Shown piece by piece: positions 10,368-44,974 of a stretch of 64,000 nucleotides of DNA. The stretch is from positions 175,832,001 through 175,896,000 of the forward strand of contig OX597817.1 of assembly GCA_951406725.2 (NCBI GenBank), read 5' to 3'. Both the position numbers and the translations under genes were made by a program. The DNA is from Octopus vulgaris. Its lineage: Eukaryota. How positions within the stretch are numbered: position 1 is the stretch's first letter; every line of letters begins with the position of its first letter. The notes beneath the pieces are model-generated. The model worked only from the letters and a program-made list of their open reading frames with translations, made no database searches and had not been told where the DNA came from.

Positions 10368-10425
10368 TCGGCTGTAATGGATCTATAAAACTGAAGACAT
10401 CCGAAACTCAGAGTTTTATTATGAC
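10368..10425 (+). ncRNA. Degenerate hammerhead-like motif
   Basis: ataaaa-CTGAAGA-catcc-GAAAC-TCAGA-GTT-ttatt. Stem III is the same as in the hammerhead at 58351, but stem II is damaged or ambiguous. Confidence 0.4.
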
Positions 10426-10579
10426 AACCGCATAATTACATTACAGATAAATTCCTCTATTTACATAATATTGAGGTCTCATTCATTCTTTTGTTGTCAC
10501 ACTATTACTATTAATATATATATATACGTATATATATTATATATATATATATATATATATATATATATATATATATATA

Positions 10580-10904
10580 AAAAGACTCCGCCGGTTACGA
10601 CGACGAGGGTCCCAGCTGATACGATCAACGGAACAGCTTGCTCGTGAAATTAACGTGCAAATGGCTGAGCATTCCACAGACACGTGTACCCTTAACGTAG
10701 TTCTCGGGGATAATCAGCGTGACACAGAGAGTGACAAGGCTGACCCTTTAAAATACAAGTACAACTCATTTTTGCCAGCTGAGTGGACTGGAGCAACGTG
10801 AAATAAAGTGTCTTGCTCAAGGACACAACGCGTCGCCGGGAATCGAACTCACAACCTTACGATCATGAGCCGAATGCCCTAACCACTAAGCCACGCGCCC
10901 TCAC
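10580..10904 (-). mobile_element. tRNA-derived SINE, family D
   Basis: Minus strand has A box tggcttagtgg and B box gagttcgattccc, then gtgtccttgagcaagacact. A relic of its tail is at about 48050-48220. Confidence 0.85.
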
Positions 10905-10951
10905 TTATATATATATATATATATATACACACAGATACATACATATGTATG

Positions 10952-11818
10952 TATTGGGTCATCCCATAAATAATGCGGTTTTTTCAATTGCATAAACTAA
11001 AAGTCGGAGGGGGACGGGATAAACTACTTGCATCAACTTGCTCTAAAAGCAGGTAGTAATTTTACCTTGTCCCTATTCTTAGTGCAACTTTTGAAGAGTG
11101 CAGTTCAATTTTAACAGTTATGTTTTCAAAGCTATAATGTGACAAAGGACCATATTCAGCATATTTTGCTCAATGAGTTCAATAAAGGGTACTACGCTAT
11201 GGAAAATGTGCGGAATATTAATGTCGCATATGCTGATCGGACAATAAGCATATAAGCCAGTGTCAACAGTGGTTCCAGAAATTCCAAGCCAGAAACTAGA
11301 GCCTAGAAGACGCGCCTTGTCCTGGAAGATCTGTAAAGCTCGAGGAGGACTCCTGCAAACCCTGGTGGAACAAAATCCCATCGTAACTGTTGGGGAACTA
11401 GCAGAGAAGCGTGGATTTGGTCATTCAACCAGTCATTCAAGTCAACGCTAGAAGAAAAGCGACCATCTTTGGTTTCAAGACGAAAAGTGTTCTTCCATCA
11501 GGATAATACTCAGCCACATGGATGACATTCCAAAGGCTGGAGTACTTTGAATGGGAAACGATGCCCCACTCACCATATTCGCTGGACATTACCCCATCTG
11601 ATTATCATTTATTCCGCAGTCTTCGAAATCAATTGGACGGAAAAAATATGAATTCTGTAGTGGAGGTCACTACAGCACTGGAAGAGTGAATTTTGGAAGA
11701 GATAGATGGAAGAGTATTGTAGAAAACGAAGGAGAGTATATTTCAGATTAAAAAAGAACTTTGTTTACCTTAATTTTGAATAACAAAATATTAAAAAAAC
11801 CGCTTTATTTATGTGATG
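10952..11818 (+). mobile_element. Internally deleted mariner transposon with transposase pseudogene
   Basis: TIRs tattgggtcatcccataaataatgcggtttttt / aaaaaaaccgctttatttatgtgatg. Remnant motifs QWFQKF, SLEDAPCPGRS, FHQDN and HSPYSLDITPSDYHLFRSL (YSPDLAP motif). Confidence 0.88.
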
Positions 11819-41215: not shown

Positions 41216-41617
41216 ATTATGGGGATCTTTTCCGTTTGGTTGCCAGTTTCAAATTGTATTCGAATTGATTTCATATTCAGTGTAATGATACACTTTTATA
41301 GGCAAATGAATGCCAGGAAAATCATTTTTGTTATTAATAAATAAGCAAAGAGTTATTAACTATTAAAGTTTGAAAATTTGGTGTAATTTTAGCCAATCGC
41401 AAGCCATAGATACAAAATGACAGCTTCCAAATCCTGTTTCGTGGATGGGTGAAAACGATCAAACTTTAAACCTCTATTACTTAATTTTTATTCTGGTAAA
41501 AGTAAAATAACTCGAGCTATTCAGCTCAGAAAACTACATTAATGTACCAAATTTTAAAATTCTCGATAAACTTTGGTTTTTGAAACCTTGGCAGCCAAAC
41601 GGAAATGATCCTATTAT
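41216..41617. mobile_element. MITE with ~35-bp TIRs
   Basis: ggatcttttccgtttggttgccagtttcaaa / tttgaaaccttggcagccaaacggaaatgatcc. Confidence 0.75.
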
Positions 41618-41885
41618 GGTTCACGACTATCTGATGATCATAACAATTAACAAAGTCAATGCAACTGTTTTAATAAAACTCTGTGTGTGTGTGTGTGTGT
41701 GTGTGTGTGTGTGTGTGTGTGTGTGTGTGTGTGTGTATAAATACAATAAAATGGTGGAATAAAAAAGTAACTTTGTGGGAACAAGAATGGAAAACTGGAA
41801 ATAGTTAAAGGGAAATTCGGGAATGGGTATAATGGTATATGACTGTTATTCTGGAATACATTTATTTCTAGGTGTGAGAACCATA

Positions 41886-43713
41886 TTGACTGATTGATTC
41901 TAGTTTCAGCTCACGAGCTGTGGCCATGCTGGGGCACCGCCATTTGGTGTTACTACATGGTTTTACTTCACGAATGCTTTTTAGCAACTGCCATTTGGTG
42001 CATGAGAGAGTTCGATGCAGCTGCCCTCATCTGCACCTCCTGCCGTGAAGTTGGTTCATCTGGGATACCTGACAAGAAGAGATCCAGTTTCATTTTAAAG
42101 ACATCTGCATCAACCCCATGCAGGTCTCTTAGGTTCTTCGGGAGGATATTGAAGAGCTGTGGGCCTCGGAAGCCCAGGCTATCACAGTATCTTGTCCTAC
42201 ATCTTGATGGCAAATTTGGAGTCCTTGGCACCACGCAGTGGCGTCCAGTTCTGGCATTTGTGTAACTCTCGATGCCAAAGTTTGGGACAAGTCCTTCCAG
42301 GATCTTCCAGATGTATATTATGGCATATCTTTCTCGCCTACGCTCCAAGGAATAGAGTCTCAATCTCTTGAGTCTTTCCCAATAGCTTATATGCTGCACA
42401 GAGGCTATCTTCTTCGTGTAGCTACGTTGGATCGCCTCAAGTTCTGTGATCAACTTGACACTGGATGGTGACCATAGCTGAGAGCAATAGTCAAAGTGGC
42501 TTAGGACAAGTGTCCTCCAGAGGACCATCATGGTTTCTTGTTCTCTTGTTCTAAAGGTTCTAAGAATCCATCCGGCCAGTCGTCTACATTTCATTGCCAA
42601 TTTAGCAACATGTACACGAAAGGTTGCGTCATCACTCATGTAAATACCCAGGTCACGCACTGATTGTGCCTCTGGGATTGCAATTCCTCCGGGTCCAGTG
42701 TATTCATTGGGTATTGCATTTAGTTTTGCATGCTGATAGCATAAAGTTTGAAACTTTTCAGCATTGAACTGCATGCTATTCTTTTCAGCCCACTTGTATA
42801 TTTTGTCCAGCTCACATCGCAGACGTTTAGTGTCCTCAGGGTTCTGTATTGCCTGTGAAACTTTTGTATCATCTGCATAACTTGTGATCGTGGCTCTCTG
42901 CGTGGCTGAGGGCATGTCTGAGAGGGCCATTATGAACAGTAGTGGTCCCAAAACAGTGCCCTGCGGAACACCGCTCACTATTTGCGTGTTAATGGAAGTG
43001 GCCCCATTGGCTACTACCACCTGACTTCTATCTTTCAGAAAGTCATGAAGCCATTCTCCCAGTTTTCCAACTATGCTAAGATCACGCAGTTTGTGACATA
43101 TCACTCCATGATCGACTTTATCAAAGGCCTTTGCAAAGTCGAGATATATCACTTCCACATTTGAGTGGTTGAGCAGTCGTTTCAGCACCCAGTCATAGTG
43201 TTGTAGGAGCTGAGTTAAGCAGCTTCTTCCTGGTCGGAAACCATGTTGGATGTCAGACAGCAAGTCATTTTCTTCAAGGAAGGTGATCAGTTTCCTTCTG
43301 ACTATTCGTTCCATGACCTTGCTGATGTGTGAGGTCAGAGAGATAGGTCTGTAGTTCTTTGCCTCCGCTCTGCTACCTCCTTTATGAATAGGGCATATTT
43401 TACCTTCCTTCAGTTTTCTTGGAAGTTTGCCAGTTGCAAGGAAGCTCTGAAAGAGGAACTGCAGTGGTCTTGCTAGGACTCTCTTACATACTTTTAGGAG
43501 GATTGCCGGGAATCCATCGGGGCCAGTAGCTGAGTCTGTTTTCATTTCATCTATAGCCTTTATTACATCGTCTTCCTTTATATCGATGTAATCTATCGTC
43601 GCTGCCTCTGATTTTATATCTGCAGTGGTAAAGAAGTCAGTTGGATTGGTGATTTGGAAATGCCCAAGGGGTGGAGTGAAAACACTCTTGAATTGCTCAT
43701 TCAGTATTTCACT
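41886..43713 (-). mobile_element. 5'-truncated CR1-type LINE with an uninterrupted RT ORF (41968-43545, 525 aa); endonuclease domain absent
   Basis: GPDG, NYRPISL, QHGFRPGRSC, YLDFAKAFDKV, GVPQGTVLGP and YADD motifs; (TCAA) tail. Confidence 0.95.
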
Positions 43714-44974
43714 TTAGCAATAAATTTCACTGGGTAACACGATTTTTGTCCTTGGGTAGCAACAGTTATTTCCTATCTGCTTACCCTTAGAAAATATGAA
43801 AATCGGTTAATATTTCCTTCAGACTTTTCTTTTGTTGTGTCTGGGGAGAGTCATTTTCTTTTTGTGCCTTATGATATAACACACTCACCGGTAAAATTTC
43901 CACTTATTCCTTATTATTATTTTCCTAAAATCTTCGTTGCGTCTTGCAGTCTTTTCAATAATCTTGACTCTTTTGTTACATTTATTCAAACCCCAAAGAA
44001 TCCCTCTCAACACATGCCTATGATGCTCCCCCATTAGTCGTGCTCATGATTAGAGATGCAAATATAACCACTAAGGGATACGCTCATGTGGTTATGGTCA
44101 AGAAACTGACAAGCAATTCTGTGATATTAAGGATAATATTTGTTATAACGATATTTCTGCTTCAGCAATTCAGCGCTGAATTTGTCAGAAATGTAATGGA
44201 AAAGAAGGCAGTTTCAAACCATTGATATCCAGGTGACAAAAGCAAAGTTTGAAGGGAATAGTAGACATTTCCTTCGATTTCTCGATAGAAGCAAATAGGA
44301 AATAACACTTACTGACCAAAGACAAAAAAAAAAAAATTATTACTCTGTGTTATAAGTATACATGAAGGCATACATGCAGACTCGCACACGCGCATAAATC
44401 TATGCGAGTGTATACATACACACACACGTACACACACACACACAGAGGCAGGTATGTGTACATATATATATATATATCCACACATACACATGTGTACATA
44501 TATATATGCCCACACATATACATGTGTACACATATATATGTGTACACATATATACATCTACATATACTCATATGCAAATCTGTGCTTATGTAAAATATCT
44601 ATACCTATAATCATATATATTCACATGTACCCACTTGCATGTTCATATATGTATACATATACACGTATATACACGCATGCATATATACATGTACATATAT
44701 ACATACACATATATATACATACATACCTACATGCATATACACACATATATGCATATGAATATACATATACATATTCATACACACACACATACACACACAC
44801 ACACACATATATATATATATATATATATACATGTACATATATACATATATATATTTGACTGAAATTGATGGGTGAGCGTTTGGCCAATCAGATTCGCAAG
44901 GAGCCATGACAGCTACGATTTGTGGGTTCGATTCAGCCTGAGGTTAGCTCATCATTTTTCGGTCATTTGTTTAT

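Follow-up and report, generated by a model that had tools for sequence, protein, structure and literature searches.

Minimal hammerhead motifs recur about 100 nt before the ends of short, probably Penelope-derived elements in Octopus vulgaris DNA

We analysed a stretch of 64,000 nucleotides of Octopus vulgaris DNA (assembly GCA_951406725.2, contig OX597817.1, positions 175,832,001 to 175,896,000 of the forward strand; hereafter the window, to which all positions below refer) in which several short elements carry hammerhead ribozyme motifs close to one end. The motifs are the known minimal hammerheads of Penelope-like elements (PLEs), found here in new families, and both the motifs and their recurring distance from the element end are real. 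The short elements are probably the 5′-truncated 3′ ends of several PLE families, and the spacing of 93-108 nt from the predicted cut to the end likely stems from reverse transcription (RT; also used for the transcriptase) that starts at a fixed point inside the pseudo-long terminal repeat (pseudo-LTR) RNA rather than from an end that the ribozyme creates. The window, which is AT-rich animal DNA, contains short tandem repeats over 11,922 of the 64,000 bases, LINE (long interspersed nuclear element) fragments together with two PLE remnants (57187-57915 and 61511-63908, both minus strand). Statements about families are based on the window itself, on one contig layout over 16505-17420 and on published consensi.

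A sequence-only reading of the window had listed hammerhead-like cores at 10391, 17214, 39398, 43962 and 56174, each about 90-110 nt upstream of an element end, and further cores at 38720, 59086 and 60515 that lack this spacing. We searched the window with a strict descriptor (CTGANGA, 5-20 nt, GAAA, a palindromic stem III of 2-7 nt and a UH cut site) and compared the counts with local dinucleotide shuffles of the non-repeat DNA, made in 500-nt blocks with microsatellites kept in place. Five matches were obtained, at 10391(+), 16262(-), 39398(-), 56174(-) and 58334(+), so that three of the listed cores were recovered and two unlisted ones were added; because 58334 is the inverted twin of 56174, they represent four independent insertions. 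The shuffles yielded 0.57 ± 0.77 matches each, with four in 1 of 300 and five or more in none, which means that the strict motif is not as frequent in shuffled sequence as in the window. The palindromes of 2-7 nt carried by all five matches are a requirement of the descriptor. The looser core alone occurred eight times compared with 2.8 in shuffles, eight being reached in 2 of 300. When one mismatch was allowed and stem II had to reach 3 bp or more, the resulting degenerate cores were not enriched (9 versus 6.9), and since they occur at the chance rate, such sites carry no statistical weight by themselves. An Rfam scan of the window gave no hammerhead among the listed 150 of 358 matches, and those listed were driven by microsatellites.

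Spacing was measured in nucleotides from the predicted cut to the next (TA)n run of at least three units, with 85-115 as the target range. The distances are 99 nt for 10391, 93 nt for 16262, 104 nt for 39398, 108 nt for 56174 and 37 nt for 58334. Four of the five strict matches thus lie within the range, compared with a mean of 0.025 and a maximum of 1 per shuffle (200 shuffles), and a TA run begins 88-112 nt downstream at approximately 4% of unmasked positions; among the degenerate cores, 1 of 9 had the spacing. The range was picked with the claim of a 90-110 nt spacing already known, and the out-of-sample checks are 16262 and the contig-derived end of the 17214 family described below. The recurrence of the spacing beyond chance was therefore borne out.

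The motifs at 56174 and 58334 belong to a truncated PLE of the Hydra clade, within whose inverted pseudo-LTRs they sit, and it is for these two only, among the hammerheads of the window, that a pseudo-LTR placement is established. The 5′-truncated main arm (56037-57924, minus strand) consists of an endonuclease-coding remnant, the 3′ untranslated region, the hammerhead and a tail whose long 3′ end at 56037 abuts (TA)n. The remnant (57187-57915, minus strand) encodes a C-terminal linker and a GIY-YIG-type endonuclease (WFNP.., C-x-F-x5-C, CxxC, CxH, no CCHH); it had no Pfam match, has 65 homologues at E ≤ 1e-3, the top ones being 39-46% identical, and matches by eye the Hydra rows in the covered part of the supplementary alignment of Craig et al. 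2021 (PMC8557442). The endonuclease lacking CCHH and bearing CxxC and CxH was seen in the alignment with 5 of the 65 homologues. The linker of the window copy reads C-x-F-x5-C where CxCX5C is expected, and the second C is kept in all five aligned homologues.

The hammerhead motif of this element (56141-56178, minus strand; descriptor and folding) has its predicted cut after 56145 (GUA) and comprises a 4-bp stem I, CUGAUGA, a 2-bp stem II with a basal A-A mismatch, GAAA and a palindromic stem III with a 1-nt loop. The prediction is that it folds as a dimer only; cofolding gives a double-hammerhead arrangement of -17.8 kcal/mol compared with -7.8 per monomer, in which the core is buried; this dimer fold has to be read with the A-A mismatch and the opposite strands of the two window copies in mind. 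The tail folds into a hairpin of 4 bp, a 3-nt 3′ bulge and 4 bp (56080-56101, minus strand) that begins 44 nt past the cut. The inverted arm (57925-58400, plus strand) is identical to 56108-56584 at 475 of 477 nt and ends 37 nt past the cut of its own hammerhead, without the 71-nt tail of the main arm. Two tail-only copies were found by self-BLAST with microsatellites masked, as unmasked repeat finding was swamped by microsatellites. One (1259-1322, minus strand; 64 nt, 100% identical) extends from the hairpin as far as the long end and has a (TA)n run on either side, and the other (21908-21982, plus strand; 75 nt, 96%) has the same 3′ end and spans the position of the short end. The long end at +108 is accordingly common to three copies, and both arms and both tail-only copies terminate at TA runs. 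The window holds a second, broken PLE at 61511-63908 (minus strand) with RT and GIY-YIG domains (PF01541, E 3.8e-6), Neptune-like by eye in its Cys-rich linker and CCHH; a search of its 3′ region as far as the TA run near 61190 gave no hammerhead.

Two further strict matches are of the Hydra type. The degenerate hammerhead at 10391 (10386-10514, plus strand), with a predicted cut after 10415 and a (TA)n end at +99, has decayed stems I and II and a hairpin (10454-10476) that begins at +39, and a 12-nt word of its stem III, together with words in its tail, recurs in 56174. The hammerhead at 16262 (16134-16262, minus strand), one of the two unlisted matches, is predicted to be cut after 16227, reaches (TA)n at +93 and has a weak hairpin near +44. 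Its inverted partner (core 16284; 16279-16335, plus strand), recognised by self-BLAST and the descriptor, has well-paired stems I and II, has lost G12 and enters (TATC)n soon after the cut. Together they form a second, smaller inverted pair with a stem III of the same type as in 56174.

The core at 17214 lies in the 3′ stump of a high-copy family (17140-17334, plus strand, with 17140 as an approximate 5′ limit), the cut being inferred after 17241 and the end at 17333-17334, followed by (TA)n. As it stands in the window this copy misses the strict descriptor, and position 6 of its core (17217) is U instead of A. Family evidence was found in all four runs of a contig layout built from contigs with three organism labels at 80% likeness. 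The majority letters in the listed 40 of 88 rows of the table give C17221A (89% of depth in run X1), C17230G (71%) and A17245G (83%), with which the bulged A is regained, as are a 4-bp stem II and part of stem I. Loose contig ends followed by (TA)n, listed for runs X1 and X3, pile up at 17333 (74 and 91 contigs, respectively), with a lesser pile at 17317, and place the family end 92-93 nt past the inferred cut. Summed contig depth rises from 985 to 96,867 towards this end, approximately 100-fold from 17156 to 17341, which is the profile of 5′-truncated retrocopies. If the family majority keeps U at core position 6, a high-copy family has a non-canonical core. The window copy has a perfect 8-bp hairpin after 17241 that is not a feature of the family, as the majority letters G17278A and T17280A break it.

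The same layout covers a very high-depth repeat at 16505-17110 (minus strand) with a pyrimidine-rich PLE-like body and a (TA)n end; its summed contig depth exceeds 1 million over 16505-16750, at one end, and falls approximately 50-fold upstream. The repeat has a GAAA near 16650 between two possible helices and no CUGANGA after majority correction, and a half-core at 16684 (minus strand) was removed by the majority letter at 16683; the repeat end is possibly a hammerhead-less or variant end module.

The remaining strict match, at 39398 (39268-39404, minus strand), is a minimal hammerhead with a bulged A, a 4-bp stem II, a 2-nt palindrome and a weak stem I, predicted to be cut after 39372 with (TA)n 104 nt further on. 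The core given as 43962 begins at 43958 (43835-43961, minus strand) and remains a candidate, a heavily decayed U3-A8 hammerhead by sequence, that needs GAAG changed to GAAA and two changes in stem II, that is, at least three. It has a hairpin at +45, and its end at 43835 lies 93 nt past the cut inferred after 43928. Because a second, hammerhead-less copy found by self-BLAST (12373-12470, minus strand) abuts (TA)n, the 3′ end of this family is fixed. The surrounding 12365-12495 holds a family stump, after which 20 nt of its own 3′ end are repeated in inverted orientation, and patterns made from the family sequence had no match in metagenome or genome contigs.

The listed cores at 38720, 59086 (its core is at 59096) and 60515 are unsupported by the statistics, as they are no better than chance among degenerate cores; 59096 falls in the one-mismatch class, and 38720, 60515 and also 43958 carry more mismatches. 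The one at 59096 (59065-59099, minus strand, cut after 59069) is a degenerate minimal hammerhead resembling 39398, and 39398, 17214 and 59096 resemble one another, in part by eye. At 50220-50365 (plus strand), a heavily decayed GAAACA word, within chance, precedes a short TA-rich run by approximately 113 nt and may mark another stump.

Minimal hammerheads in PLE pseudo-LTRs of metazoans were described by Cervera and de la Pena 2014 (PMC4209133) as solo copies and opposite-strand copies 100-700 bp apart, with a bulged base after A9 and a U3-A8 variant. The window motifs share with them the type I layout, the short or absent palindromic stem III, these two features, the solo and opposite-strand arrangement and the many families per genome, and the bulged A and 2-nt palindrome of 39398 and 17214 assign these two to the other type published there. 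They differ in that most window copies are decayed, and the text of that paper covered here gives no cut-to-end distance or tail hairpin. Hydra-clade PLEs (Craig et al. 2021, PMC8557442, supplementary files covered in part; Hydra-2_Amil, Hydra-2_Ajap, Hydra-1_Obim) likewise have linker and endonuclease motifs without CCHH, a (TA)n target, a 4-bp palindromic stem III with a 1-nt loop, an inverted 5′-truncated arm and an optional tail, and the layout of the 56174 motif is that of the Hydra-2_aMil hammerhead in File S2. The window PLE belongs to a different family from Hydra-1_Obim, with another hammerhead sequence (its stem III 12-mer had 0 matches in the supplement), and departs from the described Hydra elements in its tail of 71 nt versus 30-40 nt, its replaced second linker cysteine and its lost RT. 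No related PLE loci were found in the metagenome or viral contigs searched, and a Hydra-type hammerhead pattern gave 22 loci in viral contigs, 0 of them with PLE-like stems or tails by eye.

Published distances from the cut to the consensus end were taken from 24 of the 26 Hydra rows in Files S1 and S2 of the same paper, leaving out Penelope-18_HMa, which has its motif at the 5′ end, and also the antisense Penelope-13_HM row; two of the values were confirmed by letter count in File S7. They fall at 30-48 nt in 10 of 24 rows and at 88-153 nt in 11, the remaining three being 63, 70 and 355 nt, and the two clusters mirror the +37 and +108 ends in the window. Some short published ends may be true family ends, as four copies of Hydra-1_Obim end at +36. 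The cut-to-end spacing is thus a common mode, not a constant. The reading of these motifs as hammerheads of several PLE families was borne out; a single spacing shared by them was not supported, as one and the same element also ends at +37 and the published distances extend from 30 to 355 nt.

A functional parallel is PAc, a Poseidon element of Anolis, as far as the covered parts of PMC11167929 go. Its hammerhead cuts at open reading frame (ORF) position +26 and a main RT start lies at +111-118, a distance of 85-92 nt by our subtraction. The PAc protein nicks AT-rich DNA on both strands, and RT starts at two internal RNA sites matching the genomic tail ends; insertion is unchanged in hammerhead mutants, and RNA reads ending at the cut were not seen. 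PAc resembles the window elements in its two ends bounding a tail, its AT-rich target and the hammerhead approximately 85-92 nt upstream of the RT start in a stem-loop, and differs in belonging to the Poseidon clade, with a hammerhead overlapping the ORF start, compared with ends at +37 and +108 in the window.

Three of the nine window elements tested have a hairpin with Watson-Crick pairs only, in which a 3′ bulge of 2-3 nt separates two 4-bp helices; it begins 39 nt (10391), 44 nt (56174) and 45 nt (43958) past the cut. Such a hairpin occurs in the same 12-nt range at approximately 2.5% of random positions, an optimistic rate because the definition came from 10391 and 56174; 43958 played no part in defining it. 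Whole-tail folding energies of the hairpin-bearing elements were ordinary (z -0.57, -0.38, -0.55 and +1.03). The same fold was recognised by eye in three long-ended Hydra consensi of File S7 (PMC8557442, in the part covered), at +44 in Hydra-2_Amil, at +39 in Hydra-2_Ajap and, with one mismatch, at +48 in Hydra-1_Crog, and three short-ended consensi end at or before the hairpin position, also by eye. The paired letters differ between the window, coral and sea-cucumber elements while the position stays at +39 to +48. As a candidate binding site, the hairpin would set where RT starts. We tentatively suggest, as a possibility on which we remain doubtful, that Hydra-clade PLEs and perhaps others have a conserved end module (cut, approximately 44 nt, bulged 4+4 bp hairpin, 27-44 nt, terminus) in which the hairpin docks the RT-endonuclease and serves as a ruler for both RT starts, 7 nt before and approximately 40 nt after the hairpin. 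In the literature searched, parts of which were covered, there was no statement of a conserved cut-to-end distance or tail hairpin; subscription papers, figures and Repbase notes were outside the scope and may have one.

Because the copies continue through the cut site without a break and terminate 3′ of it, the insertion end is not made by the ribozyme. By analogy with PAc, the element protein would nick AT-rich DNA and prime at either of two internal RNA sites; RT would then copy backwards through hairpin and hammerhead and mostly stop early, leaving stumps of 64-500 nt, and priming on both strands would give a long arm and a short arm as an inverted pair. The stumps, their junctions with (TA)n and the inverted pairing of a long with a short arm would thus follow from a fixed internal start approximately 100 nt past the cut, early drop-off and both-strand priming.

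Several observations weigh against this explanation. The mechanism would be borrowed from a different clade, and the hammerheads and RT start points of the window are predicted from sequence. Three of the four strict insertions fail a stem II of at least 3 bp, and stems are poor in most window copies, as the sequence-only reading had remarked: stem I is good at 56174, 58334 and 16284, stem II is good at 39398 and 16284 as well as in the majority letters of the 17214 family, and pairing is poor elsewhere. Most window hammerhead copies are probably inactive fossils. The elements at 10391, 16262 and 39398 are single copies with ends read only from the adjoining (TA)n, and PLE coding sequence is physically joined to only one of the six spacing-bearing elements. 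Among the 24 published Hydra distances, which spread from 30 to 355 nt, only six fall within 85-115. Finally, the hairpin test was negative at the cuts 17241, 39372, 59069 and 60539 (17214, 39398, 59096 and 60515, respectively) and gave a weaker hairpin at 16227 and 38753 (16262 and 38720).

The strongest competing explanation, which we consider unlikely overall, is that the spacing is merely inherited, a few related families having kept an ancestral end length without mechanistic constraint. The stem III and tail words common to 10391, 56174 and 16262, the likeness of 39398, 17214 and 59096 and the 30-355 nt spread of published distances all fit such descent. However, the groups are otherwise unalignable, with no BLAST match between them, yet all lie at 92-108 nt; the anole Poseidon element stands at 85-92 nt (PMC11167929, as covered), and the hairpin base pairs differ while its position holds.

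A circular RNA, made by hammerhead cleavage and re-ligation and reverse transcribed from approximately 100 nt past the ligation scar in a rolling-circle or retrozyme-like manner, was proposed in the covered text of PMC4209133; it would allow copies to span the cut site, and the predicted dimer fold favours it. Against it stand the lack of tandem hammerhead units in the window and the PAc mutants that insert normally without RNA reads ending at the cut, and we regard it as improbable. The elements had also been called retrozyme-like, and non-LTR retrozymes (bioRxiv 10.64898/2026.07.22.740005, as covered) do share the type I hammerhead, short non-coding units and kinship to PLE pseudo-LTRs. They are defined, however, by tandem repeats with a hammerhead per unit (at least two consecutive). 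Window self-BLAST gave no head-to-tail array of hammerhead units, only solo copies or inverted pairs, and the elements are therefore not retrozymes. Chance motifs picked by eye in AT-rich, microsatellite-dense DNA likely explain some or all of 38720, 54510, 59096 and 60515, given the unenriched degenerate cores, but are a most implausible source of the whole pattern and are ruled out for 10391, 16262, 17214, 39398 and 56174 by the motif excess (5 versus 0.6), the spacing (4 versus 0.025) and the family letters that restore 17214.

The suggestion that much of the unannotated short repeat here is ribozyme-derived was not upheld. The hammerhead-to-end modules make up approximately 1 kb of the 64 kb by hand estimate, and no strict match lies in the abundant dispersed repeats of the window, such as the family at 6886-7290. 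The elements are better described as PLE 3′ stumps that merely contain the motif. Among other repeats, a palindromic 325-nt element (60719-61042) and its single-arm copy (9477-9642) have a CTGAAGAA half-core with a hairpin and no GAAA, and the 9477 copy has a GAAACG word approximately 165 nt from its end. Further palindromic elements of 150-210 nt at 23000-23181, 24949-25155 and 49502-49647, two of which adjoin (TA)n, had no hammerhead match. LINE-like coding fragments at 27058-29896 (minus strand) are broken by very long (AAT)n expansions that are in frame as poly-Asn.

Internal initiation of RT at a fixed point, the explanation we favour, touches two unsettled questions, namely what directs PLEs to their internal priming sites and why the hammerhead has been retained. 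If true, the hairpin ruler would account for the 'tail' of PLEs as well as for a 90-110 nt spacing that recurs from the window to elements of coral and sea cucumber. Were a hairpin to lie at a constant distance from the cut, its base pairs having changed across phyla, the existing in vitro PLE assay would have a concrete target, and the cut-to-end rule offers curators a means of identifying unclassified short repeats as PLE stumps and of orienting them.

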